Of a stretch of 38,296 nucleotides of DNA, positions 10,072 to 37,276 are shown in pieces. Within the stretch, counting starts at the first letter, position 1, and every line of letters starts with the position of its first letter. The notes beneath the pieces were generated by a model. That model did no database searches. It was not told the DNA's origin and worked only from the letters and a program-made list of their open reading frames with translations. The position numbers and the translations under genes were made by a program. Origin of the DNA: an uncultured delta proteobacterium (GTDB lineage: Bacteria > Myxococcota_A > Polyangia > Polyangiales > Ga0077539); the NCBI GenBank assembly GCA_903885885.1, contig CAISKJ010001284.1, positions 1-38,296 on the forward strand. The letters run 5' to 3'.

Positions 10072-10144
10072 GCGCGGAGGGCTGTGGGACGAATTCCTCC
10101 CAGGGCGAGTTCCCAAGTGGGGGAGAAGTAAGGTACATGGCCGG

Positions 10145-10159: not shown

Positions 10160-10173
10160 GATGGAGTTAACTC

Positions 10174-10359: not shown

Positions 10360-10406
10360 AGGCTTCGCACACACATTTCGCAACGATCGTGAAAGGAACC
10401 GCCACC

Positions 10407-10586: not shown

Positions 10587-10688
10587 TCCGCAAAGGCGCT
10601 GTCGCCGACGGCATCGCTCGGCGGCTCGAACGATGCGCCGCGGCTTCCGCAGGGGAGTCCGCGGCGCGCGCGATTTGGAGGGTCTCTT

Positions 10689-11285: not shown

Positions 11286-11309
11286 TTGCCAGTTCGTGAG
11301 GAAGAACCG

Positions 11310-12829: not shown

Positions 12830-12859
12830 GCGACGATTCGAACGAGGAGACACTCCCCA

Positions 12860-13801: not shown

Positions 13802-13859
13802 ACACCCCTCGATCATAACGCTGCGTCGATGCGACGCGGGCCGCGGTTGCCGTTGTGTC

Positions 13860-13874
13860 TGGCACTGACTTTGG
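13860..13874 (+). promoter_or_regulatory. Weak sigma-54-like element upstream of cpaB
   Basis: TGGCAC-TGACT-TTGG has a perfect -24 box and correct spacing, but the conserved -12 GC is GG. It lies in the 168-nt gap about 95 nt upstream of the cpaB ATG. Confidence 0.2.
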
Positions 13875-13969
13875 TCTAGTGTCTCCGCGCCTGCGACGGT
13901 ATCCGCGGCGGCGGCGCCGCGCTCGGCGCACGCATCGGCCAACGCGCGGCATCGGTTGAGGGTGATTGG

Positions 13970-14806: not shown

Positions 14807-14845
14807 CCTCGCACGAACCTCATCGAGGAGCCGCCGAAGACCGCC

Positions 14846-16189: not shown

Positions 16190-16250
16190 GACAAGCTGTC
16201 CTCTCGCGGGCGCCGCGGCGCCGCTGCGTAGAGGGCGCCGCAAGGAAGCG

Positions 16251-18029
16251 ATGGATCAGGTCCTCCTCTCGATCGAGACGCCCAACTCCCCTCCGATGAC
16301 CTACATGGTCCCGTCGGGCGGAGAGATCTCAATCGGGCGCGACGAGACCTGCACCGTGGTGCTCGCCTCGCCCGACATCTCGCGTCGGCACGTGAACATC
16401 AACATTCACCCGCAGTCGATCGTCGTGCGCGACTCGTCGAGCAACGGTACGCAGGTCGGCACGCAGCGGGTGTTTCGCTCCGAGCTCCCAGTCCCCTTCG
16501 GCACGCCCATTCAGGTGGGGCCGTATGTGATCCGCGTGATTCGGCAGGGCGCGCAAAACGCGGCCGCCGCGCCGCCGCCGGGGGCCGTGCCGCCTCTTCC
16601 GCCGGTGCCAGGTCGTGGGCCCAACCCCATGGGGCAGACCATGGCTGCGGGTGCCAACGGCGCGCCTCGTCGCAACGTGCCCACCATGATGCCCGGGCAG
16701 GGCCCGCCGGGCATTCCGCAGGGGCCCGCCGCGCCCACCGCGGCCGCGCCGTCGGGCGGCACGATGCACGTCTCGGTGGAGCTGCGGCGACGCATCCACC
16801 GCATGCTGCTCGACCACATGGACCTCGCGGTGCTCGACCGCTCCAAGATGGCCGACAACATGATGCGGCCGAAGGTGCGCGAGGCCCTCAAGCGCATCAT
16901 GGCGCAGGTCGCGCAGGACCTGCCTCCGGGCACCGATCAAGAGCAGCTGATGCAGGAGATGGCCGACGAGGCGCTGGGCCTCGGGCCCCTCGAGCGCTTT
17001 CTGGCCGACGGCACCATCTCAGAAATCATGGTGGTCGATCCGCACACGATCTTCGTCGAGAAGCGCGGCAAGCTCGTGCGGGCCGAGGCGCGCTTCACCG
17101 ACGACGAGGCCGTGCGAAGCTGCATCGAGCGCATCGTGACGCCCCTCGGTCGGCGCATCGATGAGAGCACGCCGCTCGTCGACGCCCGCTTGAAAGACGG
17201 CTCGCGCGTCAACGCGGTGATCAAGCCCCTGGCCATCAAGGGCGCATGCATCACCATTCGTAAGTTTTCGAAGACTCCGCTGGGCTTGAACGACCTTGTG
17301 GGCTTCGGCTCGCTCACCGACCAGATGGCGCGCTTTCTTACGCGCTCGGTGATCGCCAAGAAGAACATTGTGATCTCGGGCGGCACGGGCTCGGGCAAGA
17401 CCACGCTGCTCAATGTGCTCTCGGGCGCCATCCCGAAGGACGAGCGCATCATCACGATTGAAGACGCGGCGGAGCTGCAGCTCAACCAGCCGCACGTGGT
17501 GTCGCTCGAGTCGCGCCCGGCCAACATGGAGGGCAAAGGCGAGTACACGATTCGCGACCTCGTAAAGAACGCGCTTCGTATGCGCCCCGACCGCATCGTG
17601 GTGGGCGAGTGCCGCGGCGGCGAGTGCCTCGACATGCTCCAGGCGATGAACACGGGCCACGACGGCTCGCTCACGACGACGCACGCCAACTCGCCGCGCG
17701 AGGCCATCAACCGCCTCGAGGTGCTCGCGCTCATGTCGGGCATCGATCTCCCCGCGCGCGCCATTCGCGAGCAGATTGCCAACAGCGTGCACCTCGTGGT
17801 GCAGCAGTCGCGCTTCTCCGACGGTTCGCGCCGCGTCACGTGGATCACCGAGGTGATCGGCCTCGACGACAACTTCGAGATCCAGCTCCGGCCCATCTAC
17901 GAGTTTCTTCGCAGCGGCACGGGGCCCGACGGCAAGGTGCTCGGCGAGTACCGCGCGACGGGGTATCTCCCGTCGTTCCTCGATGTGTTCATCTCGCTCG
18001 GCCTCGTGCAAGGGAGGGACTATTTGTGA
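16251..18029 (+). CDS. cpaF: FHA-domain-fused Tad secretion ATPase (CpaF/TadA family)
   Basis: N-terminal FHA-like core (ISIGRDETCTVVLASPDISRRHVNINI...VVRDSSSNGTQVGTQRV). Pro/Ala/Gly-rich linker. ATPase with Walker A GGTGSGKTTLLN, Asp box IITIEDAAEL and His box NTGHDGSLTTTHAN. Confidence 0.9.
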   Translation: MDQVLLSIETPNSPPMTYMVPSGGEISIGRDETCTVVLASPDISRRHVNINIHPQSIVVRDSSSNGTQVGTQRVFRSELPVPFGTPIQVGPYVIRVIRQGAQNAAAAPPPGAVPPLPPVPGRGPNPMGQTMAAGANGAPRRNVPTMMPGQGPPGIPQGPAAPTAAAPSGGTMHVSVELRRRIHRMLLDHMDLAVLDRSKMADNMMRPKVREALKRIMAQVAQDLPPGTDQEQLMQEMADEALGLGPLERFLADGTISEIMVVDPHTIFVEKRGKLVRAEARFTDDEAVRSCIERIVTPLGRRIDESTPLVDARLKDGSRVNAVIKPLAIKGACITIRKFSKTPLGLNDLVGFGSLTDQMARFLTRSVIAKKNIVISGGTGSGKTTLLNVLSGAIPKDERIITIEDAAELQLNQPHVVSLESRPANMEGKGEYTIRDLVKNALRMRPDRIVVGECRGGECLDMLQAMNTGHDGSLTTTHANSPREAINRLEVLALMSGIDLPARAIREQIANSVHLVVQQSRFSDGSRRVTWITEVIGLDDNFEIQLRPIYEFLRSGTGPDGKVLGEYRATGYLPSFLDVFISLGLVQGRDYL

Positions 18030-18895
18030 ACCCCTCGGCGCAGACCACGCTCATGGGCTGGATGTCGGTGCTTCTCCTCGCGGCGGGCGTCGCGGTGGCG
18101 ATCTACATCACCCTCACCGACCCCGAGAGTTTTCTCGCGAAGCTCTACGCCGACTACGTGAAGCACCTCGACGCCGAGCTGCGCGGGCTGTTCATTCAAG
18201 AGCCCACGGGGCGCACCATCGCCAACTGGCAAATCGGCGCCGCGGTGGCCATCGTGACGGTCCACGTGATGGCCGAGCAGCCCGTCGCGTATCCGCTCAT
18301 CCCCTTCGTGGCCATTCTGCCCAAGATCTGGCTTATTGACGCGAAGACCAAGCGACAAGACAAGATCGAGCAGCAGCTCGACTCTTTTCTGACCGCCCTC
18401 GCCAACGCGCTCAAGGCCTCGCCCTCGCTCGGCGACGCGATGGGCAACACGGCCACCCTGCTGCGCTCTCCGTTGAAGGAAGAGCTCGAGCTCACCATGA
18501 AGGAGACGCAGCTCGGCATGCCGCTCGACCAGGCCATTCTCAACATGGGCGGCCGTGTGGGGTCGCGGGCCTTCGCGGGCGCGCTCACCACGGTGCTCAT
18601 CGGTCGGCAGACGGGCGGCGACCTCCCGCGCATCCTCGAGACGTCGGCCTCCACCCTCCGTGAGATGGCGCGCCTCGAGGGCGTCGTGCGCACCAAGACC
18701 GCCGAGGGCAAGGCGCAGGCGTGGGTGCTCGGCGTGATGCCCCCCATTCTCATCGGCATTCTCAACTGGATCGACCCCCAGTGGCTCACGCCCCTCAACA
18801 CCACCTTCATCGGTGGGATCGTCTGGCTCGTGGCCGTGCTCTTCTGGATCGCCGCGGTGTTCCTCGCGCGCAAGATCCTCTCGGTCGACATCTGA
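18026..18895 (+). CDS. tadB: TadB-like inner-membrane platform protein (T2SS-F family)
   Basis: GTG start overlaps the cpaF stop (GTGA at 18026-18029). TM helices plus a T2SSF-type cytoplasmic domain (LDSFLTALANALKASPSLGDAM...). Confidence 0.8.
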   Translation: MNPSAQTTLMGWMSVLLLAAGVAVAIYITLTDPESFLAKLYADYVKHLDAELRGLFIQEPTGRTIANWQIGAAVAIVTVHVMAEQPVAYPLIPFVAILPKIWLIDAKTKRQDKIEQQLDSFLTALANALKASPSLGDAMGNTATLLRSPLKEELELTMKETQLGMPLDQAILNMGGRVGSRAFAGALTTVLIGRQTGGDLPRILETSASTLREMARLEGVVRTKTAEGKAQAWVLGVMPPILIGILNWIDPQWLTPLNTTFIGGIVWLVAVLFWIAAVFLARKILSVDI

Positions 18896-18919
18896 GGGCG
18901 CAGGCGTAGGAGACCCCCA

Positions 18920-19834
18920 ATGGGCATGACACCCGTCACCGCGCTGTTCTTCTACCTCTCCCTGGCGCTCTGCGTGCTGGGCTTCGGGGTCTTCGTCTAT
19001 CAGCTCGCCCTCACTCCGGCAGATATTCAGCCCGATGTGGGCATCAAGGGCCTCAAGCGACAGGCCGTGCTCGATGAGGGTGGTCCCTTCAACACCGTCG
19101 AGCCCCTCATGCGCTGGCTCGCCACGCGCATCGCCGCGCTGCCCATCGCCGACATGCGCGAGAAGGTCAACGCGCAGATTCGCCACGCGGGCGAGTATCT
19201 CGGTCTCACCGCCGACGAGTACCTCGCGCTCTGCGTGCTGGGCTCGCTGGGCTTCGCCCTCTTCGGCTTCGTGGTCGATTATCTGGCCCCCATCGGCGGC
19301 GTGTTCGTGCTGATGTTCGCGGCCTTCGGGGCCATTCTTCCGCACATGCAGCTGTCGGGTGAGATCGAGCGGCGCTTCACGCAGGTGAACCGCGGTCTGC
19401 CCTTCGCCATCGACCTCGTGGCCCTCACCATGAGCGCCGGGTTGGACTTTCCCGGCGCCCTCCGTCAGGTGACCGAGAAGACCTCGGACAAGAACGACGC
19501 GCTCTACGAAGAGATGCAGCGCATTCTGCAGGAGCTCGAGCTGGGGCGCACGCGCAAGCAGGCGCTCCTCGCCTTCGCCGACCGTTGTCCCACCGAGGCT
19601 GTGCGCGATTTCGTCTCGTCGGTGGTGCAGGCTGAGGAGAAGGGCAACCCCCTCGCCGACGTGCTCCAGATTCAAGCCACCATGCTTCGCATGCGACGCA
19701 GCGTGGCCGCGGAGGAGAGCGCGGCGCGCGCGGGCGTGCTCATGATGGGCCCGCTGATGCTCATCTTCGCGACCATCATGCTCATTATTCTGGGGCCCTT
19801 CGCCGTGAACATCATGTCAGGCCACGGGATCTGA
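18920..19834 (+). CDS. tadC: TadC-like inner-membrane platform protein (T2SS-F family)
   Basis: AGGAG RBS. T2SSF-type region RGLPFAIDLVALTMSAGLDFPGALRQV flanked by TM helices. Confidence 0.8.
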   Translation: MGMTPVTALFFYLSLALCVLGFGVFVYQLALTPADIQPDVGIKGLKRQAVLDEGGPFNTVEPLMRWLATRIAALPIADMREKVNAQIRHAGEYLGLTADEYLALCVLGSLGFALFGFVVDYLAPIGGVFVLMFAAFGAILPHMQLSGEIERRFTQVNRGLPFAIDLVALTMSAGLDFPGALRQVTEKTSDKNDALYEEMQRILQELELGRTRKQALLAFADRCPTEAVRDFVSSVVQAEEKGNPLADVLQIQATMLRMRRSVAAEESAARAGVLMMGPLMLIFATIMLIILGPFAVNIMSGHGI

Positions 19835-19850
19835 CAGGGAGCGCACCTCA

Positions 19851-20744
19851 ATGCCCACGCCGCAGCTCGATGTCTACCTCCCCGATGGAACGGTGCAGAA
19901 CTTTCCCCTCACCGACGAGCGCGTGGTGGTGGGCACGTCGACCAAGTGCCAGGTGATGATCGATCGGCCGGAGCTCGCGCCCGAGCACCTGCTCGTCTCG
20001 CCTCGGCCCGACGGGTGTTGGGTCGCCGTCGCGCGCGGGGTGGCCACGCCGACGATCGTCGACAACATGCCCTTCGAACGCGGCATGGTCACCTGGGGCA
20101 AGACCATTCAGGTCGGTCAGGTGCGCATGGTGCTCGCCGACGGCACCCGCGCGAAGAGCAACGCCAACAAAGACAAGGACAAGAAGGAAGAGAAGGTCTC
20201 TCCGGTCATTCTCGGGGCCGCCGTGATCGTGCTGGGCCTCGCCGGGTGGATGCTTCTCACGGAGCCGGGCAACCTCGCGCCGCCGAGCCGCGTGTCGACC
20301 CCGCCGCCGGCCCTCTTCGACGACCTCAACCGCCCGTGCCCGCAGGCCGACCCGTCGCTCATCGTGTCGACCGCCGAGGAGAGCACGCGCATCGCCCTCT
20401 CGAAGGCCGAGCGCATGCCGTTTCGCACGCAAGACGGCGTCGAGGCCGTGACGTACTACGCCCAGGCCGGGTCGTGCTACCGCGCCGCGGGCAACGCCGA
20501 GGCCTCCACCGAGGCGATGCGCCGGGCCAACCTGCTGCGCGCCCGCCTCGAGGAGGAGTACACGGCCCATCGCTTTCGCCTCGAGCGCGCGCTCGAGCAG
20601 ACGCGCTACGAAGACGCCCTCTACGAGGTGAAGATGCTCACGGCGCTCGTGACGCACCGCCGCGGGCCGTACCTCACCGCCCTCAACACGCTCGAGCGTC
20701 AGCTCACCATTCGCATCGATCAGGCCGCTGCCGCGAACCGGTAG
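19851..20744 (+). CDS. FHA-domain membrane protein with helical (TPR-like) C-terminal domain
   Basis: FHA-like N-terminus (RVVVGTSTKCQVMIDRPELAPEHLLV...VDNMPF...IQVGQVRMVL). Lys-rich linker, one TM helix (VILGAAVIVLGLAGWMLL), and a helical repeat-like C-terminus. Confidence 0.75.
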   Translation: MPTPQLDVYLPDGTVQNFPLTDERVVVGTSTKCQVMIDRPELAPEHLLVSPRPDGCWVAVARGVATPTIVDNMPFERGMVTWGKTIQVGQVRMVLADGTRAKSNANKDKDKKEEKVSPVILGAAVIVLGLAGWMLLTEPGNLAPPSRVSTPPPALFDDLNRPCPQADPSLIVSTAEESTRIALSKAERMPFRTQDGVEAVTYYAQAGSCYRAAGNAEASTEAMRRANLLRARLEEEYTAHRFRLERALEQTRYEDALYEVKMLTALVTHRRGPYLTALNTLERQLTIRIDQAAAANR

Positions 20745-20767
20745 CGCTGGTGAACAGGCACATCTCC

Positions 20768-21271
20768 ATGTCGTTGCTTCGCTCGCGTCTTCGCTCTCTC
20801 GCCACCCTCGCGCTCGCGGTCGGCGCGCTCTCCTCGAGCGGCTGCGCGCCCGAGGTCTCGCTGTGTCAGGTCGACGGCGCCCTGCTCGGCACCGACCTCT
20901 ACGTCAACATCGTGGGGTATGTGCGCGTGTACGGCGAGGAGCCCTACGAGGGCCGCGCCACCGTGGCCATTCTCGACAGCGGCGGCCGCACCGTCGCCGG
21001 CGGCACCACCCGCACCTACGATCTCATCGAGTCGGGCGGGAGCTATGTGTGCGTGTACACCGTCGAGCGCAGCGGCGAGGCCTCGCAGCGCCGCCTCGGC
21101 ATCGGGCCCTTTCCGATGGCCATGGTGGGCAACGTGCGCGGCCTCTCGGTGCGCCTCACCATGAACGACCGCAGCGGCAACACGCAGACGGTCACCCTGC
21201 CGCTCTCGCGCGTGCGCGAGGTCGACGAGATGCCGAACTTCAACTGCGGGTCGACCCACTGCGGGCGATGA
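20768..21271 (+). CDS. Lipoprotein, unknown function
   Basis: MSLLRSRLRSLATLALAVGALSSSGC is a signal peptide plus lipobox. An alternative GTG start lies at 20749. Confidence 0.6.
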   Translation: MSLLRSRLRSLATLALAVGALSSSGCAPEVSLCQVDGALLGTDLYVNIVGYVRVYGEEPYEGRATVAILDSGGRTVAGGTTRTYDLIESGGSYVCVYTVERSGEASQRRLGIGPFPMAMVGNVRGLSVRLTMNDRSGNTQTVTLPLSRVREVDEMPNFNCGSTHCGR

Positions 21272-21346
21272 GCCAGCGCCCCTTCGCAACCCGTCGACGC
21301 GATCTACACGACTCCATCGAGCGCGGTGTATAACCGCCGCGCTCGG

Positions 21347-21928
21347 ATGAACGTCACCGCTCGAACCCTCGCGCTGGCACTCGTCGCGCTCGCTCCGTGC
21401 GGCGTCGGCTGCGCCGCGCGCGCCGCGCAGCAGGGGCCCACGACGGACCCCATGGCCAGCGTTACGGCGCAGCAGCTGTACGACACGGGCCTCGCGGCCG
21501 CGCGCGCGGGCGACCTCGTGCGGGCCGAGCAGTACCTCGTGGCGTCGATGCAGCGGGGCATGCCCGAGCCCCGCGTGCTGCGTCAGCTCGTGAGCGTGTG
21601 CGTGCAGGCCTCGCGCTTTCGCGCCGCGGTGGCGTACGCGCGGCCCTACCTCGAGCGGCACCCGCACGACTGGGCGCTGCGGTACCTCCTGGGCACCATT
21701 CTCGAGGGGCTCGACGAGCACCAGTCGGCGCGGCGCGAGCTCGAGGCGGTGATCGCCGACAACGCGCGCCACGCCGAGGCCCACTTTCTCCTCGCGACGC
21801 TGCTGCGAGAGCGCTTCAACGACCCGGTGAGCGCAGACGTGCACTTCCGGCAATACATCGAGATCGCGCCCGATGGCTCGCACGCCGAAGAGGCGCGGGC
21901 AGGGATGCTGAGGCAGGTCGGGCAATGA
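21347..21928 (+). CDS. TPR-repeat lipoprotein (TadD-like candidate)
   Basis: MNVTARTLALALVALAPCGVGC (lipobox) followed by TPR-like helical pairs (AQQLYDTGLAAARAGDLVRAEQYL..., AEAHFLLATLL...). The track ORF starts at a GTG at 21326. Confidence 0.6.
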   Translation: MNVTARTLALALVALAPCGVGCAARAAQQGPTTDPMASVTAQQLYDTGLAAARAGDLVRAEQYLVASMQRGMPEPRVLRQLVSVCVQASRFRAAVAYARPYLERHPHDWALRYLLGTILEGLDEHQSARRELEAVIADNARHAEAHFLLATLLRERFNDPVSADVHFRQYIEIAPDGSHAEEARAGMLRQVGQ

Positions 21929-28258: not shown

Positions 28259-28435
28259 TCAGCGTCGACCCTTGAACCCCATCATGCCCTGCACCACCGA
28301 CTCGCTCGCCTCGGCGATTTCGGCGGCCTCGCGGGCGCGGTCCGCGCAGTCTTCGCAGAGCTTCTTCGACTTGCCGCCGACCTTCACGGTCTTGAGGCTG
28401 TCACTCTCGTCGCCACATCCCTTGCACACGGCCAT
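28259..28435 (-). CDS. Small zinc-ribbon protein (58 aa)
   Basis: MAVCKGCGDE...KKLCEDCADRA carries two CxxC pairs. It lies 72 nt upstream of speA on the same strand. The rest of track ORF 28259..29200 is Arg/Ser/Ala-rich shadow sequence. Confidence 0.5.
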   Translation of the reverse strand: MAVCKGCGDESDSLKTVKVGGKSKKLCEDCADRAREAAEIAEASESVVQGMMGFKGRR

Positions 28436-29000: not shown

Positions 29001-30458
29001 TTACACGTCGAGGGGGCGTTGCACGAAGCCGTAGGAGGGCTCGCACCACAGGGCTTGCGGCACCACACCGTCAGGGGCGACGACGTGAAGCAGGTATGCC
29101 TGCGGATGTCCGGAGGCCACTTCACGCCATTCGGAGTCGTCGCCGACGCGAAGCGCGACGATCTGGTGCTCGATGTGGGCGAGCACCACAGGGCGCTCAC
29201 TGTTGGCGTTGGGAATCACCCAGGCGTCGGGACGCTTTCGGTTGTGGTGCGGAGGCGCAATGAACTGCCAGAGCGCCAGGGTGGCCGAGCCGTCGAGGGC
29301 GATGCGCGCGAGGGACATGCGACCGTCGACGCCCGTGGGGCCGAAGAGCAGGTCGACGGTGCCCGTGGGCTCTACCGCGACGGGCGGCATGCCCACGGCT
29401 GCGATGGCTTCGGGGTACGTTGCGAGGGTGACGGGACCCTGCGAGGTGCCGGTGTCGGGCCAGAGGGTCATGCGGGCGATGGCAGTGCCTTCGTGGCTGG
29501 CGAAGGCGAGCACGACGTCGACGACGCGGCCCTCATCGCGCTGCGTGGCGGTGGCGCACCACGTCGCGGGGAGCGTGTCGATGCCTGTGGGGAAGGCCAT
29601 CACCACGGGCTGCGCCGCGCGCGCGTGGCAGGTGATGACGAGGAGCGTGAATTGGCCCGCCGCGTCGAGGCCCGCCGCGAGAAACGATGCAGACTCGGTC
29701 TCGGTCTGCCAGCCTACCTCGTAGAGCGAGGCGCGCGGGAGCGGGAGGGTGGTCGGGGCGATGCGCATGAACACGGTCGCACACTGCGCGACACCCGCAG
29801 CGAAGACATTGTCGCCAAGGGTGGCGTACCAGCGGTTCTCTGCGCAGGGGGCGAAGCTCAACGCGGTGGCGATGGTCAGCGCGCGCACCCCTGCGGGCAG
29901 TCGGTCTCTCGCGAAGAGCTGTCCCGTGAGCGGGGCCTCTTCGTGGCCTGAGCGCTGATAGATCTCGGTTTGATTGCCCTGTGTGTGGTGGGCGAGCGTC
30001 AGGGTGAGCGCCTGGTCGCCTGGACACCAGCCGACGGCGAGGTCGATGACGTTCGGGGGCTGCACGGTGAGGGGGACGGCGGCCGATTCGATTGCGGCGC
30101 CCCGCGCGCGCCAGGATACAGAGAGCAGGTATGCGCCCGGTGCGATGTCGTCGGGGGCGAGCGCTCCGAGATCGTGCTTGCTCGTGAGCGTTGCGCCGGG
30201 GGCGAGGGTGACGTACTCGTAGCGCGGGGCGGGGGCGGAGTCTTGATTGCGCTCGCTGAGCGCAGCGAAGGCGCTCAGCGCGTAACGCCCGTCGCCCGTA
30301 GGCATATCACGGAGCGAGAACTCGTAGGGGCTCATCGCATCGGGGGAGGGCACCTCGACGGGGGCGTCTCCCCGGTTGGTGATGGCGACGGTCACCGGGA
30401 TGGAGCAAGCGACGAGCGCCTGCGTGGCCGCGGTCGAGACGATCAGCACGAGAGACAT
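29001..30458 (-). CDS. Lipoprotein, last gene of the effector operon (immunity/inhibitor candidate)
   Basis: MSLVLIVSTAATQALVAC (lipobox). It is the only protein of the six-gene operon with a signal peptide. The N-terminal segment (VTVAITNRGDAPVEV...YEFSLRD...) looks beta-sandwich-like. Confidence 0.6.
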   Translation of the reverse strand: MSLVLIVSTAATQALVACSIPVTVAITNRGDAPVEVPSPDAMSPYEFSLRDMPTGDGRYALSAFAALSERNQDSAPAPRYEYVTLAPGATLTSKHDLGALAPDDIAPGAYLLSVSWRARGAAIESAAVPLTVQPPNVIDLAVGWCPGDQALTLTLAHHTQGNQTEIYQRSGHEEAPLTGQLFARDRLPAGVRALTIATALSFAPCAENRWYATLGDNVFAAGVAQCATVFMRIAPTTLPLPRASLYEVGWQTETESASFLAAGLDAAGQFTLLVITCHARAAQPVVMAFPTGIDTLPATWCATATQRDEGRVVDVVLAFASHEGTAIARMTLWPDTGTSQGPVTLATYPEAIAAVGMPPVAVEPTGTVDLLFGPTGVDGRMSLARIALDGSATLALWQFIAPPHHNRKRPDAWVIPNANSERPVVLAHIEHQIVALRVGDDSEWREVASGHPQAYLLHVVAPDGVVPQALWCEPSYGFVQRPLDV

Positions 30459-30500
30459 AAACCGTGTTCTTTCATGCGCGCGAAGAGAGGTTCATGAGCT

Positions 30501-33500
30501 TTAGGGGTGGGCGAATTTATTGCCAGGGCCGCCCAGGCCGGTGACGCGCCAGCCGCGGTTGCGCAGCACACACACGCCGCAGAAGTAGCCGAGCTCGCCG
30601 TAGCGGCAGTCGGAGTAGCTCATGATGCAGCGCCGATCCCAGCGCTTGGCCTTGGGGTCGGCGTTGCCGCCGAGGCCGCCCCAGGTGACGTTGCTCACCT
30701 TCTCGTTGGCCGCGGTGTCGTGGAGGTTGTCTTTCTGGCCGGGGCCGTCACCCGCGTGCTCGAGGTGCCGATGGTGGCCCACCTCATGCGCCCACACCGA
30801 CTTGAGGCGATCTTCGGCCTCGCCTTCATAGAAGAGCCACGTGGCGCCGAGCGCGCCGCCCACGGCCGGGAGCGACATCGCGCTGCGGGTGAGGTATCCG
30901 CGGTCGGTGATTTTGCCCGCGGCTGCGGTCGCGGTCGTGCAGCCCGGTGAGGGGCAGTTGGTATTGTGCTTGGGGCCGTTGCTCGTAGCCTTCTTGAGGC
31001 CCCAGTAGCTGTGAACCGTCGTCCCGTTGCACTTGTACTGTGCGATGTAATAGGTCGGAGATGCCTTGAACTCCAGGAAGAGGTGCCCGCGCAGGTATCC
31101 CTTGCGCTCGGCCTCGCGCACGAAGGCCATGAGCAGGGCCGCGCGGAACTTCCGCCACGTCGCGGAGCAGATCGTGTCGAGCCAGGTGTTGAGCTCGCCC
31201 TGAGGCAGGTCGACGGTGGTCAGGTCGGGCCAGCCGAAGTCGTTCTGGTCGGCCCAGGGCCACAGGTGCTCTGCGTGGAGGGTGACCTTGTTCTTGTCCT
31301 TGAGTCCGGCCTTCGTGACGTTGCGTGTAACGATCTCTTTGAAGCGGGTCTTGTGCGTGTTGTTGCCGGGGTCGAACACTGCCGAGAGGGCGAGGGTGTT
31401 GGCGGTGCCGCCCTCGTGTACGAAGTACACGTGCGCCGCGCGATAGAACGCGCGAAAGGCGTTGATGAAGCTCGCGCCCCAGTTGCCGCCGCCGCTGCCC
31501 CAGCGAGAATAGGCGCGGAACGAGCTCCGTCGCCACACGCGCATCGCGGGGCCCGCCGCCTGCGGGCGCACCGGGTAGCGGGCCTTCAGGGCTTCCAGGT
31601 TGGGAAACTCATAGCCGTCGAACTTCTCGAAGCGGACCTCGGCGCGCACGCGGTACCCGTCGCCCGCGATGATCGAAGGTCGAAAGAACACCCCGGCGCG
31701 CCCGATGCTCTCTTCGAAGAGGTCGGTGTTCTTACGCTGCGCATCCGCGAGGTGGTCGTGGGCCACCGTGGCCATGCACTCCTTGTCGCCGATCGCCTTC
31801 GGCTTCCACGGCTTGAGGCTCAGGTCGCCATCGGAGAACACCGCCGTGTGGTAGCTCGCCGCGCTCGACGGTCGCACGCCCCCGAGGGCCTCGGTGCAGT
31901 TGATGTACACGGCTTCGCGCTTCGTGTCGGCCCGCGTGTGCTTCGCCTGGTTCTGCGCGAGGGCCCACTGCACGTAGCGCTGCGTGCGAACGAAGCTCTT
32001 GTCGTAATTGGCGTGGCCCGTGTCGATGGCGCTGAGATCGTAGGAGAGCTCGTCGACGGTCCAGTCGACGCGCACCGGACCGAGCGCCGCGCGCATCGTG
32101 TCGATGTCGTCGGTGGAGGGGTTCGCGTCGACGTCGTCGCCGAGGTGCTTGTCACGACTCATGAGCCGCGCCGTCGCCTGAAGAGGGATCCACGGCCGCG
32201 GGATCTCGGCGAGGTCGAGCGTGGTCTTGCCGTCACCTACCACCATGCCCCCGCGGTAATTCAAGAGCCCCATGCGCTCGCGCGGGGCGTTGCCCGAGAG
32301 GAAGGCGTTGCCCTGTTCGTCGAGGGCGGCGTCGGCCGCGGTGTTGTACTGCCGGTCGTCGACCCACACCACCACGTCGTCGAGCACGCGCTTGAGGGAT
32401 TGTTTGTAAGTGTCGTGCGCGAGGTCGGGCGCATCGCTGTTGCCGCGGATGCCCTGAATGTCACCGAAGACCGTGCGCTTGTCGCTCGCGCGAATGTGTT
32501 GAATGGCCTCGTAGAGGTCGCCGCTCTCGGCGGTGTCGATGGCCATTCGCTGATAGTCCGAGGTGGTCTTGTGGCGCGGCACCGAGCGCTTGAACTCGCG
32601 CAGGGCGCGCTCGTAGTGCTCGTTGGTCGAGCCCGTGACGGGCCCCGGGTGAAAGCCGAACTCGGCCAGCTTCATCTGGAGGTAGGCGGTGTCCGCGGTG
32701 GGGGCAACACCGAGCACCATGGGGGCGGGCTCGAGGATGAGGCTCGCGGGGGTCACCCGCGACTCGAACGCGAAGTGATCGGCGTCGACCGCGCCCGGCG
32801 CCACGTGCAGTCGCACCTCCGTGTGCATCGAGGCGAGGGCCAGCCCCTTCTCCTCGTGCGGCCCCGTGTGGGCGCGCACCTCGACGCGGTAGGGCATGTC
32901 GGCGGCGATGAGCGCGTCGCCGTCCTTGCTGTTCTTGATGCCCTCGGCGTAGGCGCCGTCCCAGTCGTCGATGGCGTGCTCCCCCTTGCCGACGAGCGCC
33001 TTCTTCAGCGGTCGTTCGAACACCACCTTGTGGTTCTTGTCGACGACGCGAACGATCCCCTCGGCGAGGCGCGAGGTCTCGCGCACCTCCCACTCGATCT
33101 TCAGCGACTCCTTCTTCGGCTCCTCCGTCGAGGTTCGCACCTTGTACACGTAGGGCGCGTTCTCGTTGTTGGCGTTGCCATCGGCGTCTACGCTGTTGGC
33201 GTCGTCGAGGTACGCCCCTTCGCCGTGCGTATTCTGAATCTCGCCGAGGTACTTCTTGTCCCATGTGAACGTGCGCTCACCAGACTTGAGCTGGTCGCCC
33301 TTGAGCACCGCGAAGAACACTCGGCGACCGCCCTTGTCGACCACCTCGACGGCGCCGCACACGACGTCCGCGGCGTTGGTCCATTTAAGCTCGATGGAGC
33401 CTCCCGCCGTGACGGTGGGCGTGTGCTCGGCCTTCGTCTCTTTGAACACAGGCCAGAAGGGCTTCACGAGCAGCAGGGCCTTCGCGTCGCTGGCCTCGCC

Positions 33501-34229
33501 GTCTTTGCGCGCGCGGAGCACAACCGTGTAGGGAGAGAACGCCACGTTGACGTAGCGCTCGCTGGCGGTGCCCGTCTTGCGCGAGAGCAGGCCCTTCTCG
33601 GTGTTGGCCTCGCCGGTCCAGCCGCCATCGGCCAGCGTGGTCTCTTCCGCCCGCTTCGCGCCCGAGATGTCTTTCTTGTAGATGGGCTCGTCGACGAGGT
33701 CGTCGGGCTTGCCCCAGGTGCCCAGGCCCTCGCTCCAGTCGGTACATTCGCAGTATTGGCTGCCAAACACCATGAAGTCGAGCTTGTCGGCGCAGGCCGC
33801 GAGGCCGTGCGCCACGTACTTCGCCTCGCACTTCTCCTTCTTCGGGATGAACCACCGGTCGAGCGCGCGGAAGCTCACCGCGGCCGCGGGCCGCGCGCGC
33901 TTCAGGTGCACCGTGTGGGTCTGCTTGGGGGCGAGGTCCGAAGTCCAGGCGGTCGGCACCTTGAGCTTGGGGGTGTCGAGCTTCGCGTCGGGCGTCATCG
34001 GGAGCCTGGACGGGTCGTCCTTGTGCGGCCCCGCCTGATCGGTGAGCTTGACGCCGATCGTCTCTACCAGCGCACGAACGACCTCGTCTCGCTCTGCGGT
34101 GCCGAAGTTGTACCGGGCGAGCGCCTTCCAATCGCTGACGCCTTTGGCCTGGGCGATGCTGCTCAGCGTGTCGCCCGCCTGCACGGTGTAGGCGTCGCTC
34201 GCGTCGTGTCTCTTGTAGATCTTTGTCAT
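30501..34229 (-). CDS. 1242-aa LysM / peptidoglycan-binding-like / metzincin-type zinc metalloprotease, no signal peptide
   Basis: LysM at the extreme N-terminus (YTVQAGDTLSSIAQAKGVSDWKALARYN). Two related beta-sandwich modules (…IELKWTNA..GAVEVVDKGGRRVFF… and …LKIEWEVR..GIVRVVDKNHKVVFE…). PG_binding_1-like helix pair (YLQMKLAEFGFHPGPVTGSTNEHYERALREFKRSV). C-terminal HEVGHHRHLEH (HExxHxxxxxH) followed by a Met-turn-like CIMSY. GGAGGGG RBS. Confidence 0.8.
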   Translation of the reverse strand: MTKIYKRHDASDAYTVQAGDTLSSIAQAKGVSDWKALARYNFGTAERDEVVRALVETIGVKLTDQAGPHKDDPSRLPMTPDAKLDTPKLKVPTAWTSDLAPKQTHTVHLKRARPAAAVSFRALDRWFIPKKEKCEAKYVAHGLAACADKLDFMVFGSQYCECTDWSEGLGTWGKPDDLVDEPIYKKDISGAKRAEETTLADGGWTGEANTEKGLLSRKTGTASERYVNVAFSPYTVVLRARKDGEASDAKALLLVKPFWPVFKETKAEHTPTVTAGGSIELKWTNAADVVCGAVEVVDKGGRRVFFAVLKGDQLKSGERTFTWDKKYLGEIQNTHGEGAYLDDANSVDADGNANNENAPYVYKVRTSTEEPKKESLKIEWEVRETSRLAEGIVRVVDKNHKVVFERPLKKALVGKGEHAIDDWDGAYAEGIKNSKDGDALIAADMPYRVEVRAHTGPHEEKGLALASMHTEVRLHVAPGAVDADHFAFESRVTPASLILEPAPMVLGVAPTADTAYLQMKLAEFGFHPGPVTGSTNEHYERALREFKRSVPRHKTTSDYQRMAIDTAESGDLYEAIQHIRASDKRTVFGDIQGIRGNSDAPDLAHDTYKQSLKRVLDDVVVWVDDRQYNTAADAALDEQGNAFLSGNAPRERMGLLNYRGGMVVGDGKTTLDLAEIPRPWIPLQATARLMSRDKHLGDDVDANPSTDDIDTMRAALGPVRVDWTVDELSYDLSAIDTGHANYDKSFVRTQRYVQWALAQNQAKHTRADTKREAVYINCTEALGGVRPSSAASYHTAVFSDGDLSLKPWKPKAIGDKECMATVAHDHLADAQRKNTDLFEESIGRAGVFFRPSIIAGDGYRVRAEVRFEKFDGYEFPNLEALKARYPVRPQAAGPAMRVWRRSSFRAYSRWGSGGGNWGASFINAFRAFYRAAHVYFVHEGGTANTLALSAVFDPGNNTHKTRFKEIVTRNVTKAGLKDKNKVTLHAEHLWPWADQNDFGWPDLTTVDLPQGELNTWLDTICSATWRKFRAALLMAFVREAERKGYLRGHLFLEFKASPTYYIAQYKCNGTTVHSYWGLKKATSNGPKHNTNCPSPGCTTATAAAGKITDRGYLTRSAMSLPAVGGALGATWLFYEGEAEDRLKSVWAHEVGHHRHLEHAGDGPGQKDNLHDTAANEKVSNVTWGGLGGNADPKAKRWDRRCIMSYSDCRYGELGYFCGVCVLRNRGWRVTGLGGPGNKFAHP

Positions 34230-34250
34230 CTGAGCTCGTGCCCCTCCGCG

Positions 34251-35045
34251 TTAGCCCGCGGACTCCAACGCGTCTACCCAGAACATCGGCTCCTCGGCTC
34301 CCTCTTCGGCCTCTTCGTCGTATGCGAGCTCGGTCACCTTGAAGGGGCCATCGCCGTTGGGAAACCGAGCCTTGTAGGCCCCCTGCGCGTCGGTGCTCAC
34401 GACGCGCTCGGCGAGGCCTGGCGGTACGAGTTTGATGGCGACACCCTCCACGGGCGTGCCCGGCGCGGGGCGCTCTCTCACCACGAGAGAAACCCAGACG
34501 GGCGGCTCGATGACAAAATACACCCAGCGCGACATCACCTCGCGGCGATACTCGCCAGGCGGGACGCGCAGCCGAAGCTTGTAGACCGCGCGGTCGTCGC
34601 CGAAATCGAAGGGGACGAGGGTGCTGAGGTCGAGCGAGTGCGAGCCGTTGGCGCTCGGGGGGCCGTCGTCCCACTGAAGGTCGTGCGTCCACACGGGCAG
34701 GAGCACGTTGGGGCGGTAGATCTCGATCGTCGCGCGGCGCGCGTGCGTGTGACCCTTCAAACGCCAGCCGATGGTCACGCTGCCTGAATCGACCTTGTAC
34801 CGAAGCCGGGTGGTGCTGTCGGCGGGCACCGTGGGGTGCGCATGCTGGGTGTAGGACGTGTCGTAGGTGTGCGTGCCCTGGGTGAGCGACAGCGCCTCGA
34901 CGCCGACCACACGACGCACGAAGGAGATACCTTTATGCAGGTCGTAGGCGGCGCGCGCTACAAGGCCCTTGCCGAGGTACTTATGGTCCGTGCTCTCGAC
35001 GTCGAGAAAACTGCTCCCGACGATGGCGGGTGGGGTCCAGGTCAT
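34251..35045 (-). CDS. Hypothetical protein with C-terminal transthyretin/CarboxypepD_reg-like segment
   Basis: AGGAG RBS 8 nt upstream. C-terminus VSLVVRERPAPGTPVEGVAIKLVP...STDAQGAYKARF. Acidic tail. No signal peptide. Confidence 0.55.
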   Translation of the reverse strand: MTWTPPAIVGSSFLDVESTDHKYLGKGLVARAAYDLHKGISFVRRVVGVEALSLTQGTHTYDTSYTQHAHPTVPADSTTRLRYKVDSGSVTIGWRLKGHTHARRATIEIYRPNVLLPVWTHDLQWDDGPPSANGSHSLDLSTLVPFDFGDDRAVYKLRLRVPPGEYRREVMSRWVYFVIEPPVWVSLVVRERPAPGTPVEGVAIKLVPPGLAERVVSTDAQGAYKARFPNGDGPFKVTELAYDEEAEEGAEEPMFWVDALESAG

Positions 35046-35078
35046 CGGTGCGACTCCTGTGGAGATGGCCGGAGGGCG

Positions 35079-35714
35079 CTATTCGGTCTCGTGGTTTCCG
35101 TGCAGCCGTGAGCGGGTCACGTCGTCGAGCTCGCCCGTGGGCTCCATCCCCTGCTGCCGCTGGAAGCGACGGAGCGCGTCGCGCGTCGGCTCGTCGAGCG
35201 CCCCCGTGCTGTGACAGGGAAAGCCGAGGTTGGAGAGGCGCGCCTGCACGCCCGTGAGCTCCTCGACGGGGTCGAGGTGGCCGAGCGCGAGGTCGTACTC
35301 CTCTTCGCGGTCGCCCTCGCCGATGGTGAGTTTCGCCGACTGGGCCTTCGGGGCGATGGACACCTCTACCCAGCCGTCGCCGTTGGTGGTCCCTTGTGAG
35401 ACCTGGCCGTCGACGCGCAGGGTGTAGGGCTCGTTGGCGCGGGGCTCGTCTTCCCACAGGAAGCGCATGCGCAGCTTCGCGGGCACCCCCTTGACCTTCC
35501 ACGTGTGCCGCGCGCCCGTCGGTCGCATGTACGACGTCATGCGCTTGTCGGGGATGGTCACCACGTCGCCCGCGAAGAGCACGTTGGGGTGGCGCCCGAG
35601 CTCATGCAGCCGCGCGTTGTCGGGGTGGTTCCACAGGGTCTGCCAGTAGAAGCCGTACTTCTCCGCGATGCTCGTGAGGCACTCGCCCTGTTGCACGCGA
35701 TGCGTCGTCGACAT
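35079..35714 (-). CDS. LysM + beta-sandwich + PG_binding_1-like protein (211 aa), no signal peptide
   Basis: N-terminal LysM (HRVQQGECLTSIAEKYGFYWQTLWNHPDN...GDVVTIP). Central beta-sandwich-like segment. C-terminus VQARLSNLGFPCHSTGALDEPTRDALRRFQRQQGMEPTGELDDVTRSRL is a classical PG_binding_1 pattern. Strong GGGAGGGAGAG RBS. Confidence 0.75.
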   Translation of the reverse strand: MSTTHRVQQGECLTSIAEKYGFYWQTLWNHPDNARLHELGRHPNVLFAGDVVTIPDKRMTSYMRPTGARHTWKVKGVPAKLRMRFLWEDEPRANEPYTLRVDGQVSQGTTNGDGWVEVSIAPKAQSAKLTIGEGDREEEYDLALGHLDPVEELTGVQARLSNLGFPCHSTGALDEPTRDALRRFQRQQGMEPTGELDDVTRSRLHGNHETE

Positions 35715-35730
35715 CAGTCTCTCCCTCCCG

Positions 35731-36324
35731 TCACTGCGGCTCTTCGCGGCTCTTGCGGAGATAGTCGCCCAGCCAGTGGAGCCGTCGCTGCACCTGCGTG
35801 TCGCGTTGCGACAGGGCGTCGTGTTCGAAGCGGTACTCGCCGATGGTGCTCGCCCGCTCGCCCTCGATGAAGAACCGGTCGACGGGGCCGAACACCTGAC
35901 GCAGCTCGTCGGGCGTGCAGGTGGGCAGGTAGGTGCGCAGCACGCGCGGGTCGTAGTACCGAAAGAGCAGCTTGCGGCCGGCCTCGTCTTGCACGCGCAA
36001 GATGCGACGAAAATGCTGGTGCAGCGCGGCCAGCGACGACGCCGGCGCGCGGAGGTAGACGCCCCATGCCTCACCCCACCCGCGGCGCAGGAGCTCGCGC
36101 GTGGCGTCGTCGTCGCGCGAGAGCCGCACGATCCACGGCGCGGCGCGCGCCAGCGAGGGCGACAGCTCGCCGATGAAGAGGCACCGGTGCTCGAGCTTCG
36201 ACCCCGTAATGATCGGGTGCACCTGCGGGTCGCGCGCCCCATCGAGAATGGCGTACGCCGACGCGTCGTCGCCCGCGGGCCACAGGCGCTCGCGCAGCTG
36301 CTCCATCGGGACCTCGTCGGCCAT
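35731..36324 (-). CDS. DUF4123-family protein (T6SS effector adaptor/chaperone-like, Tap/TEC type)
   Basis: AYAILDGARDP...AAPWIVRL...WGVYLRAPASSLAALHQHFRRILRVQDEAGRKLLFRYYDPRVLRTYL matches my memory of the DUF4123 signature (YALLDGA ... RFYDPRVL). Start set at MADEVPMEQ (36324), 4 nt after the upstream stop. Confidence 0.7.
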   Translation of the reverse strand: MADEVPMEQLRERLWPAGDDASAYAILDGARDPQVHPIITGSKLEHRCLFIGELSPSLARAAPWIVRLSRDDDATRELLRRGWGEAWGVYLRAPASSLAALHQHFRRILRVQDEAGRKLLFRYYDPRVLRTYLPTCTPDELRQVFGPVDRFFIEGERASTIGEYRFEHDALSQRDTQVQRRLHWLGDYLRKSREEPQ

Positions 36325-36328
36325 CGCC

Positions 36329-37276
36329 TCAGGCCCTCGCGCCCGAGCGCGCCAGCGCCCTGCGGGCGCGCTCGCACTCCTCGCAGAAGGGCACGCCGTC
36401 GCGCGCCGCATCGATCAGCGTCTGCGCCTGCGCGTCGTTGTCGTTGGACTCGGGGTGCCCCACCGTGGCGTCGAGCGCCGCGACGTGCGCGTCGTCGTCG
36501 AGGTTGGGCCAGCGCACCTCGCACTGCCCCGGGTCGAGGTCGCTGAAGTACGCGCGGCCCGCCCGGTCGAGCTTGCCCTGCCGCACCTGGCCGTCGGGCG
36601 TCTTGATCCAGTAGGCCTCGCCGGGCATGGGGTTGCCCTCCATGTCGGTGAGCTCGATCTCGACCCAGGTCTTCTCGCGCGGGGGAGGCGCCTCGAGCAT
36701 CGCCCGCGCGGGCACGGTGGCCTCCTCGTCGAGGTCGGGCCAGCGGATCTCGCACTGCCCCGGGTCGAGGTCGCCGAAGTACGCCCGCCCGAGCCGGTCG
36801 AGCGCGCCCTCGCGGACGCGCCCGTCGGGCAGCTGGATCCAGTAGCGCTCGCCGGGCATGGGGTTGCCCTCCATGTCGGTGAGCTCGATCTCGATCCACG
36901 TCTTGGGCAGCAGCTCGCTCGCGAGGGGAATGCGCTCGATCGCCTCGCTGTCGAGGTCGCCCGGCGTCGGCGCGGCCACGAGGTGCAGCCCCGTGCGCCA
37001 CGCCCGCAGCACGCCCCGGGCGAGCGCCTGGCGCACCACCGCGCGGTCGTCGCCCGCGAGGGGCACCACGCGCCCGTAGCGCGCCGTGACGTAGCGCGCG
37101 CACTCGGCGAGCGTGCGGGCCGCGACGCTGTGCGACGAGCCCACGATCTTGTCGATGGCCCGCAGCGCCTGCGCCTCGGTGAGCGCGTTGGCGCGCCGCT
37201 CGCGCCCCGCTCCCCACGGTGTGAGCAGCACCTCGTAGGTCTCGCCGATGAGTCTCCACCGAGGTCGCAGCATCAC
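36329..37276 (-). CDS. Protein with two tandem 77-aa-period beta-sandwich (transthyretin-like) repeats
   Basis: KTWIEIELTDMEGNPMPGERYWIQLPDGRVREGALDRLGRAYFGDLDPGQCEIRWPDLD is repeated as KTWVEIELTDMEGNPMPGEAYWIKTPDGQVRQGKLDRAGRAYFSDLDPGQCEVRWPNLD. No signal peptide. GTG at 37276 or ATG at 37273. Confidence 0.6.
   Translation of the reverse strand: MMLRPRWRLIGETYEVLLTPWGAGRERRANALTEAQALRAIDKIVGSSHSVAARTLAECARYVTARYGRVVPLAGDDRAVVRQALARGVLRAWRTGLHLVAAPTPGDLDSEAIERIPLASELLPKTWIEIELTDMEGNPMPGERYWIQLPDGRVREGALDRLGRAYFGDLDPGQCEIRWPDLDEEATVPARAMLEAPPPREKTWVEIELTDMEGNPMPGEAYWIKTPDGQVRQGKLDRAGRAYFSDLDPGQCEVRWPNLDDDAHVAALDATVGHPESNDNDAQAQTLIDAARDGVPFCEECERARRALARSGARA
36500..36904 (-). repeat. Intragenic tandem direct repeat, 231-bp period, two copies
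   Basis: Near-identical DNA blocks, e.g. GCCGGGCATGGGGTTGCCCTCCATGTCGGTGAGCTCGATCTCGA at about 36620 and again at about 36851. The same 231-nt offset appears between track ORFs 36627.. and 36858.., which share the prefix MGLPSMSVSSIS. Confidence 0.85.

Follow-up and report, generated by a model that had tools for sequence, protein, structure and literature searches.

Transthyretin (TTR)-like domains are known as C-terminal extensions of VgrG and PAAR, the spike proteins of type VI secretion systems (T6SSs), examples being VgrG1-Tle1 of enteroaggregative Escherichia coli (EAEC) and PAAR-TTR. Other recruitment domains were catalogued in a 2023 study of 130,825 vgrG loci (the dbVgrG study, PMC10673891), which lists LysM and PG_binding_1 among six domain families. 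These two occur as stand-alone genes, as N-terminal fusions to toxins or as C-terminal fusions to VgrG, and co-immunoprecipitation showed that a LysM protein is needed for binding of VgrG to its effector, bridging the two (PMC10673891). Some of the loci combine LysM/PG_binding_1 with classical adaptors such as DUF4123, and PG_binding_1 was seen only in vgrG loci of gamma-proteobacteria (PMC10673891). On the effector side, the Tpe/Tpi family comprises T6SS metallopeptidases that act in the periplasm and are paired with envelope-targeted immunity proteins (PMC6899460, 2019). Here we analyze an operon of six genes, g1 to g6, in a stretch of 38,296 nucleotides from an uncultured delta proteobacterium (contig CAISKJ010001284.1). 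We refer to the whole stretch (38 kb, ~68% G+C) as the window; statements on the absence of T6SS genes from the source organism refer to this window.

The operon codes for two TTR-like proteins (g1 and g4), a DUF4123 adaptor (g2), a small LysM/PG_binding_1 protein (g3), a large candidate effector (g5) and a downstream partner (g6). An earlier interpretation, made without database searches (the sequence-only reading), had proposed an adaptor/effector module for a contact-dependent or other non-Sec export route. Comparison with related loci supports this proposal and points to the T6SS as the route, given the linkage of the family to VgrG, TssH, PAAR and adaptor genes. We consider it probable that the operon serves a T6SS encoded elsewhere in the genome as an orphan auxiliary effector module that has no vgrG of its own. 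The same reading had taken the combination of an N-terminal LysM domain with DUF4123 for an undescribed system; such co-occurrence has been described (PMC10673891), and the module is most likely an uncharacterized effector family within an already-known delivery scheme, not a new secretion system or principle.

Distribution and genomic neighborhoods of the g5 family

The g5 family is rare, with 31 clusters in 5.8e9 proteins, and is found in 36 species-representative genomes of at least 8 phyla. Its hosts belong to the Myxococcota, Acidobacteriota, Planctomycetota, Desulfobacterota, Verrucomicrobiota, Ignavibacteriota, Fibrobacterota, SAR324 and several proteobacterial classes, and include one isolate, Piscinibacter/Ideonella sakaiensis 201-F6 (L010); we found no literature on T6SS in Ideonella sakaiensis. 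When the catalytic region of g5 was used in an exhaustive profile search, 126 representative clusters (50% identity) were found at E ≤ 1e-30. Nearly all of these are proteins of 1100–1400 aa with the catalytic domain at the C-terminus, and the exceptions differ only by additional PKD, FN3 or Ig domains.

We mapped the six window genes onto 44 loci. Across ~45 loci, the constant core is a TTR-like-domain protein plus g5 (~1250 aa) and g6 (~490 aa), set in unrelated neighborhoods. The closest locus from a species-representative genome, that of a Polyangiales metagenome-assembled genome (L009; g5 71% identical), has the order vgrG, g1, g3, g4, g5, g6 and no DUF4123 gene, and its VgrG scores 310 bits against the curated TssI model TIGR03361 (cutoff 186). 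Here vgrG and a g1 homolog stand side by side, which argues against the earlier suggestion that g1 replaces the spike gene; the window merely has no linked vgrG. Synteny between this locus and the window is limited to the module, and the flanks show none even between close relatives, so the module behaves as an island. A 95% relative (L045) has the gene order of the window, DUF4123 included, and two 70% relatives (L046, L047) have g3-g4-g5-g6 only. At a Desulfobacterales locus (L017), a TssH/ClpV gene with 53% identity to an annotated tssH is followed by a gene for a VgrG (659 bits) that carries a g1-type domain at its C-terminus, and then by g5 and g6. Phage_GPD (VgrG) fragments accompany DUF4123 at L002, and a PAAR/DcrB (DUF1795) cluster lies near g5 at L008.

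Flanks were scanned up to ±10 kb per locus, and a bulk Pfam scan covered ~6 kb upstream and 4 kb downstream of 38 loci, or 292 open reading frames (ORFs). One flanking ORF among L001–L020 matched the T6SS adaptor DUF2169 (E = 1.7e-91), a match that tblastn proxies did not assign to a specific ORF. Apart from these T6SS items, the only recurrent neighbor among the 292 ORFs is the TTR-like domain. The only machinery ever linked to the g5 family is thus the T6SS, in independent lineages: VgrG at three loci (as fragments at L002), TssH at L017, PAAR with DcrB at L008, DUF4123 at five loci, and DUF2169.

Linkage to a T6SS hallmark is seen in only ~8 of ~45 loci, and ~35 of the 45 have no T6SS gene in the scanned flanks. 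Such figures would also be expected if the core (TTR-domain protein, g5 and g6) were deployed by another route, either undescribed or cell lysis, with the T6SS genes being secondary recruitments to a more general secreted protease system. The presence of the family in phyla where the T6SS is not universal would fit this scenario, as would L021, where the g1-type domain sits on an Ig-repeat protein of the choice-of-anchor-D type and not on a spike. Nevertheless, we regard it as improbable. The genes listed above are the sole linked secretion genes, they come from independent lineages, and no alternative machinery recurs in the flanks. Moreover, orphan effector–immunity pairs far from T6SS clusters are, as a matter of general knowledge, normal for T6SSs.

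The sequence-only reading had also named an outcome that would refute it, namely that orthologous operons are consistently embedded in phage-tail loci or in loci for extracellular contractile injection systems (eCISs). Cytoplasmic proteins with a LysM at the N-terminus are characteristic of contractile-tail baseplates (P2 gpX, eCIS LysM; cited in PMC10673891), and the LysM of g5 has a faint PHROG baseplate match (E = 0.09), such that the LysM proteins could be structural parts (tube initiator, baseplate 'glue') of a phage tail, tailocin or eCIS. We consider this extremely unlikely: sheath, tube, baseplate, tape-measure and terminator genes are absent from the window, and the 292 flanking ORFs contain neither these nor other tail genes. 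In addition, a tube-like domain is missing from g5, whose C-terminal part is a conserved putative zinc-protease, and the linked VgrGs score as T6SS TssI.

In at least 14 loci, a further conserved accessory family, 'g0', is represented two genes upstream of g5; the window has no member of it. The g0 proteins are all-helical and ~120 aa long, or tandem duplicates of 250–300 aa, with the N-terminal motif ML.IR.EQM..F and no Pfam match. Examples lie at 2529–2906 of L006, 9294–9656 of L002, 8865–9626 of L039, 8615–9049 of L001 and 8275–9090 of L005. In both L002 and L039 the order is DUF4123, g0, small TTR protein, g5, g6.

TTR-like proteins as candidate docking elements

As the sequence-only reading had noticed, g1 contains twin beta-sandwich repeats, which are ~80% identical to each other. 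They are of the CarboxypepD_reg/TTR-like type, with a weak Pfam match in the window and a clear one in the L009 ortholog (E = 6e-10); searches of PDB sequences with g1, as single sequence and as profile, gave no meaningful match. In a g1 profile search, the domain (~170 aa) was found to be encoded directly upstream of g5 in ~20 loci. Elsewhere it is fused to other proteins: to the C-terminus of the T6SS VgrG of L017 (residues 571–756), directly upstream of the g5 homolog; to a PAAR_motif protein at L008, beside a gene for a DcrB/DUF1795 adaptor; to the N-terminus of g5 itself at L011; and to the C-terminus of the Ig-repeat protein of L021. Judged from these sequences, the alternation between fused and stand-alone forms looks like the pattern typical of T6SS recruitment domains. 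The fusions to VgrG, PAAR and g5 bear out the suggestion that a TTR-like protein serves as an effector-docking element, and we propose that g1 is a free-standing docking domain of the VgrG/PAAR type.

g4 has no Pfam match. By hhalign, its residues 156–263 align with the proteins encoded upstream at 12 other loci, at a probability of 94.7% and E = 6e-8, and orthologs of g4 are present in L009, L045 and L046. The C-terminal domain thus appears to be a divergent copy of the g1-type TTR-like domain, so that g4 would be this lineage's version of the upstream partner of g5.

Two upstream proteins were considered as further relatives and set aside. The 771-aa protein upstream of g5 in L021, a candidate VgrG, is the choice-of-anchor-D Ig-repeat protein with a g1-type C-terminus, and a 642-aa ORF upstream in L046, likewise examined for kinship with g1 or VgrG, encodes a polytopic membrane protein that is related to neither. 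At L008, a second cluster of T6SS-type cargo genes adjoins the g5 locus (7219–15407, minus strand). It encodes the PAAR_motif protein with its g1-type C-terminus, a 1106-aa PG_binding_1 protein, a 436-aa beta-propeller-like protein, the DcrB/DUF1795 adaptor, another g1-domain protein (304 aa) and an OmpA-family protein.

The DUF4123 adaptor and the LysM/PG_binding_1 modules

g2 had been called DUF4123-like from its sequence, and the profile search bears this out: it matches Pfam PF13503 at E = 4.2e-32 (111.3 bits, cutoff 25.8) over profile positions 2–119 of 119, and NCBIfam gives a weak match to the Tla1 chaperone. Besides the window, DUF4123 occurs in L002, L026, L039 and L045, from different phyla. 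In L026 its gene immediately precedes g5, in L002 and L039 it lies two genes upstream, and L045 carries the same DUF4123 gene as the window. The canonical placement of such adaptors, between vgrG and the cognate effector, is not seen in the 38-kb window, which has no vgrG; g2 adjoins the effector genes.

The domains assigned to g3 (LysM and PG_binding) and the LysM domain and metzincin motifs assigned to g5 by the sequence-only reading are likewise upheld. g3 scores above the Pfam cutoff for LysM (22.1 bits, cutoff 20.9; residues 5–28) and matches PG_binding_1 at E = 1.7e-11. A profile built from g3 finds an internal segment in each of the g5 homologs, at E = 2e-26 in the window g5. By sequence, then, g3 is a mini-paralog of g5 residues ~380–555 with a LysM added and no catalytic part, and by analogy with the described LysM/PG_binding_1 proteins it is proposed to be a co-effector or recruitment protein. 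Orthologs are found in L009, L011, L039, L042, L045 and L046. Searches of NCBIfam and PHROGs with all six proteins gave only generic LysM or endolysin-type matches.

The premise of the sequence-only reading that LysM and PG_binding modules have a meaningful place nowhere but outside the cytoplasm is outdated in view of their role in T6SS recruitment (PMC10673891). In g3 and g5 these domains may act in loading rather than in peptidoglycan binding, and because of this we infer targeting of the cell wall only tentatively.

Three g3-like (LysM/PG_binding_1) paralogs are encoded in L039, at 2069–2779 (minus strand), 3099–3776 (plus strand) and 3786–4265 (plus strand), ~5 kb upstream of its DUF4123-g0-TTR-g5-g6 array; a weak NlpC/P60-like ORF (7358–8188) comes just before the DUF4123 gene.

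A putative divergent metzincin at the C-terminus of g5

g5 begins with a LysM domain (residues 14–57; 23.5 bits in Pfam, above cutoff). Beta-sandwich domains arranged in a chain come next, then a PG_binding_1-like module, and the C-terminal region contains a zinc-binding motif, HEVGHHRHLEH, and a Met-turn-like sequence, CIMSY. Residues 514–548 give weak PG_binding_1/LEM matches, and homologs match FlgD_ig. Across 19 diverse family members, H1148, E1149, H1152 and H1158 are invariant, as are C1201 and M1203, the latter 45 residues past the third His; Y1205 is nearly so. Relative to the metzincin motif HExxHxxGxxH/D, the three His and the Glu are present, and the Gly position is occupied by His.

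Pfam contains no model for this domain: no peptidase family, DUF4157 included, was matched at E ≤ 0.1. The family profile found no peptidase, VgrG2b included, among all PDB sequences at E ≤ 10, and PDB sequence searches with g5 as single sequence or profile gave no meaningful match. AlphaFold models of the two halves of g5 were built from family alignments. The N-terminal half (predicted local distance difference test, pLDDT, 80) shows the LysM as a beta-alpha-alpha-beta unit (pLDDT >90) followed by the beta-sandwich chain, and its Foldseek neighbors are generic multi-Ig/macroglobulin (Ig/MG-like) proteins. A second enzymatic domain had been considered at residues 115–262; the model holds only beta-sandwich domains there, and we reject it. 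For the C-terminal half (pLDDT 76, predicted template-modeling score 0.79), the top Foldseek PDB matches of the catalytic region are all TACE, ADAM-8 or snake-venom metalloproteinases. Given these adamalysin-type neighbors of the predicted fold together with the invariant zinc motif and Met-turn, we accept the region as a putative divergent metzincin.

LysM, PG_binding_1 and a metallopeptidase in one protein make up a classic autolysin architecture, and in many lineages the partner g6 is a lipoprotein. One might thus suppose that g5 is a housekeeping endopeptidase for cell-wall remodeling with a lipoprotein regulator and without a role in inter-bacterial conflict. This is very unlikely in our view, as no signal peptide or other export signal was found on any g5 homolog, and the family is very rare, spread in a patchy, island-like manner over at least 8 phyla without flank synteny even in close relatives, and linked to VgrG, PAAR and adaptors.

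PVC-metallopeptidases, the releasing peptidases of eCISs, are marked by polymorphic C-terminal toxins and an eCIS neighborhood (Zhang et al. 2012, PMC3482391). The profile of that family is DUF4157. As said, g5 does not match it; the constant architecture of the g5 family with a C-terminal peptidase and the lack of an eCIS neighborhood also led us to reject g5 as a PVC-metallopeptidase.

A Cys-rich, zinc-ribbon-like module of the form Y-x-C ... G-G-S ... C-x(2-4)-C-x-G (~30930–31030, residues ~1067–1097) is inserted in g5 where the protease passes from its beta-sheet to the HExxH helix. There is one copy in the window g5 and up to five in tandem in distant homologs (P0024, P0026, P0027, P0028, P0029, P0031). 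In homolog P0012, an insertion of ~90 aa is found instead, located after the zinc motif and before the Met-turn.

g6, a candidate immunity protein in two states

g6 adjoins g5 in 38 of 43 loci. The sequence-only reading had credited it with a Sec/lipobox signal and had on that basis assigned it as a lipoprotein immunity gene. The N-terminus of the window protein, MSLVLIVSTAATQALVAC, has no K/R and hence no charge in its n-region, and it aligns with the first beta-strands of a conserved CARDB-like domain in all homologs. The Cys of the supposed lipobox ('LVAC') is Gly (ALVGG) in the three closest orthologs (89%, 70% and 54%). We accordingly reject the lipobox in the window, the Cys being a lineage-specific G-to-C change within a conserved beta-strand, and with it falls the ground on which the immunity assignment was made.

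In ~26 of 34 g6 homologs there is an extra N-terminal extension with a hydrophobic Sec or lipoprotein signal, which the window g6 lacks. Clear lipoboxes are present in thirteen of these proteins and AxA-type sites in others. After the signal come a linker of 25–40 residues and then a Met exactly where the signal-less proteins (those of the window, L009, L021, L026 and L037) start. This Met is conserved in 26 of 34 homologs and matches the start codon at 30456–30458 of the window. Its conservation may point to alternative use of an internal start, with a cytoplasmic isoform as the product, or else to the signal-peptide segment having been cleanly lost more than once. Signal-less g6 proteins are found in the window, L002, L009, L021, L026, L037, L038 and probably L027.

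g6 starts with a CARDB/PKD-like Ig domain. We found no relatives of it in Pfam, NCBIfam or PDB sequences with either the single sequence or a profile, and word-index searches with both returned three close orthologs only. Since g6 is consistently downstream-adjacent and envelope-targeted in most lineages, it is most likely the cognate immunity protein of g5, as far as gene order and predicted signals can tell. By analogy, a signal-less g5 with a signal-bearing g6 in most lineages corresponds to what is seen for T6SS toxins that act in the periplasm and their cognate immunity proteins, such as VgrG2b/PA0261 (PMC6899460).

A different role for g6 deserves consideration, namely that of a co-factor of g5, be it a cytoplasmic chaperone/stabilizer, a co-secreted partner or an envelope receptor/activator. 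Eight g6 proteins (those of the window, L009, L002, L026 and four more) have no export signal, and the conserved Met would make a cytoplasmic isoform possible even in the signal-bearing homologs. The size (485–540 aa), the Ig-like start and the lack of resemblance to known immunity families point the same way. We judge a co-factor role to be rather unlikely, though the strongest of the alternatives, because the gene immediately follows that of the toxin in 38 of 43 loci and its product is envelope-targeted in most lineages, as in the canonical immunity pattern (PMC6899460). Under the immunity assignment, the signal-less g6 of the window is what is hardest to explain. It might inhibit or chaperone g5 in the cytoplasm before secretion, or reflect a clade-specific organization of immunity.

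Operon layout and window context

The six co-directional genes lie on the minus strand and are tightly packed (Table 1), with gaps of 4, 16, 33, 21 and 42 nt from g1 to g6 and GGAGG-like ribosome-binding sites ahead of g2, g3, g4 and g5. Coordinates, gaps and ribosome-binding sites agree with the sequence-only reading, as does the absence of Sec or Tat features from g1–g5. A promoter/terminator scan gave nothing exceeding background.

Table 1. Positions of the operon genes and of features within them (window coordinates)
Feature	Coordinates	Strand	Description
g1	36329..37276	-	315 aa; helical region at the N-terminus and a tandem pair of TTR-like (CarboxypepD_reg-type) beta-sandwich repeats
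g1 repeats	approx. 36470-36949	-	read directly from sequence
g2	35731..36324	-	197 aa; DUF4123 (Tap-1/TEC-type) T6SS adaptor/chaperone
g3	35079..35714	-	211 aa; LysM, beta-sandwich, PG_binding_1; no catalytic domain
g4	34251..35045	-	264 aa; C-terminal ~100 residues form a predicted TTR-like domain
g5	30501..34229	-	1242 aa; candidate cargo effector
g5 LysM domain	34059..34190	-	residues 14-57; Pfam
g5 FlgD_ig-like beta-sandwich and PG_binding_1-like module	32565..33092	-	residues ~380-555; paralogous to g3
g5 catalytic region, putative divergent adamalysin-like metzincin	30504..31712	-	residues 840-1242
g5 zinc-binding motif HEVGHHRHLEH (HExxHxxxxxH)	30756..30788	-	residues 1148-1158
g5 Met-turn-like CIMSY	30615..30629	-	residues 1201-1205
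g6	29001..30458	-	485 aa; partner downstream of g5, candidate immunity protein; signal peptide absent

The remainder of the window holds a Tad pilus cluster, speA, a low-molecular-weight phosphatase gene and unrelated genes. The Tad/Flp cluster (11286–21928) lies on the strand opposite to the operon and has no evident link to it. It encodes TadE-like and RcpC/CpaB proteins, a secretin, an FHA-fused CpaF-type ATPase, two T2SSF proteins of the TadB/C type, a second FHA/YscD-like protein and a TPR protein. Downstream of g6, at 28259–28435 (minus strand), is a possible 58-aa zinc-ribbon protein of the CxxC...CxxC type (MAVCKGCGDE...CEDCADR...), and a 58-aa gene is called at the equivalent position in the 95% relative (L045, 8226–8402). 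Unrelated neighbors include a 1201-aa BcrAD/BadFG-type activase with DUF2229 (2987–6592, minus strand), a 628-aa N6/N4 DNA methylase (6797–8683, minus strand) and an HTTM-domain protein (8732–9943, plus strand).

Proposed role of the module

In the scheme that we propose, g5 would be synthesized in the cytoplasm without a signal peptide, and the DUF4123 chaperone g2 would stabilize it and hand it over. The TTR-like docking domains of g1 and g4, acting in trans, would attach g5 to a VgrG/PAAR spike encoded elsewhere, and the LysM/PG_binding_1 recruitment modules on g5 itself and on g3 may also aid this attachment. The T6SS would then fire g5 into the periplasm of a neighboring cell, where the predicted metzincin would cleave an envelope substrate, either peptidoglycan peptides or proteins. 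g6 would protect as immunity protein, exported to the periplasm in most lineages.

Besides the small share of loci with T6SS linkage, several observations weigh against this scheme. There is no VgrG, PAAR, Hcp or T6SS core gene in the whole window, as the sequence-only reading had said of the first three. The fold matches behind the metzincin assignment are weak, with E values from 8.8e-3 (best) to 0.5, TM scores on the target of 0.4–0.5 and long insertions, and g5 has no detectable sequence similarity to the known T6SS metallopeptidase VgrG2b/Tpe1. At 485 aa, g6 is large for an immunity protein and has no recognizable fold relatives. Finally, the eight signal-less g6 proteins are a difficulty because a periplasm-acting toxin would not be neutralized by such a protein in sister cells.

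A more far-reaching possibility is that the trio of TTR protein, g5 and g6 forms an unrecognized, horizontally mobile T6SS effector family distinguished by two features, TTR docking that is usually in trans and a g6 that is either exported or purely cytoplasmic. This would imply dual-compartment immunity or else a non-immunity role of g6, in pre-secretion inhibition or chaperoning of a self-toxic protease. We put it forward as a speculative reading that is doubtful in this full form.

What appears to be new is the effector family itself, its spread beyond the Proteobacteria, the mostly free-standing TTR-like docking protein, the Cys-rich inserts and the two states of g6. If our proposal is correct, it adds a widespread, uncharacterized zinc-protease family, with a catalytic domain that has no Pfam model, to the T6SS effector repertoire, and extends the 'effector discrimination' logic of LysM/PG_binding_1 outside the Proteobacteria. 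The loci would offer a natural series for studying how cargo is matched to spike, as the docking domain is attached to VgrG, to PAAR or to the effector or else stands free, and DUF4123 may be present or absent. Where immunity is exerted is a small, concrete puzzle raised by the signal-less g6 variants.

Comparison with known systems

The module resembles the LysM modules of the dbVgrG study (PMC10673891) in having a LysM at the extreme N-terminus of the signal-less g5 and a separate LysM/PG_binding_1 gene, g3. As in loci of that study, it occurs together with DUF4123, and the orthologous L009 is a vgrG locus. It departs from them in that PG_binding_1 is found here in Myxococcota and other phyla, in that the window copy has no vgrG, and in its free-standing TTR-like docking proteins, which are not among the six domain families of that study.

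With regard to DUF4123 (Tap-1/TEC) modules, the likeness lies in g2, a clear DUF4123 protein encoded just upstream of effector genes. Adaptors of this type bind both effector and VgrG and are needed for secretion although they are not secreted themselves. Their modules canonically run in the order vgrG, DUF4123, effector, immunity; the operon has no vgrG, and its adaptor is surrounded by three additional genes (g1, g3, g4). The TTR extensions of VgrG and PAAR have their counterpart in the TTR/CarboxypepD_reg-type sandwich of g1 and g4, which is fused to VgrG (L017) or PAAR (L008) beside the same effector family. Unlike those extensions, the domain forms a separate protein in the window and in most loci, is in tandem in g1, and sometimes sits on Ig repeats or on g5.

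At the level of the enzyme, g5 shares with adamalysin/ADAM (M12B) metzincins the HExxHxxxxxH motif and the Met-turn, and these are its best structural neighbors. It differs from them in having His in place of the Gly of HExxHxxGxxH and in its large insertions, including the Cys-rich module(s), and the structural matches reach an E value of only ~1e-2.

A parallel in overall logic is seen with Tpe/Tpi (VgrG2b/PA0261, Tpe1/Tpi1; PMC6899460), which combine a T6SS-delivered HExxH zinc peptidase with an envelope-targeted partner (by signal peptide, lipoprotein or transmembrane helix), an arrangement predicted for g5 and g6 in most lineages. VgrG2b is absent from the top 50 Foldseek matches of g5. 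In contrast to VgrG2b, g5 is a 1242-aa candidate cargo protein and not a VgrG fusion, and g6 is unrelated to Tpi and signal-less in the window. VgrG2b does carry a TTR domain beside its peptidase, reminiscent of the TTR-like partners g1 and g4 that accompany g5.

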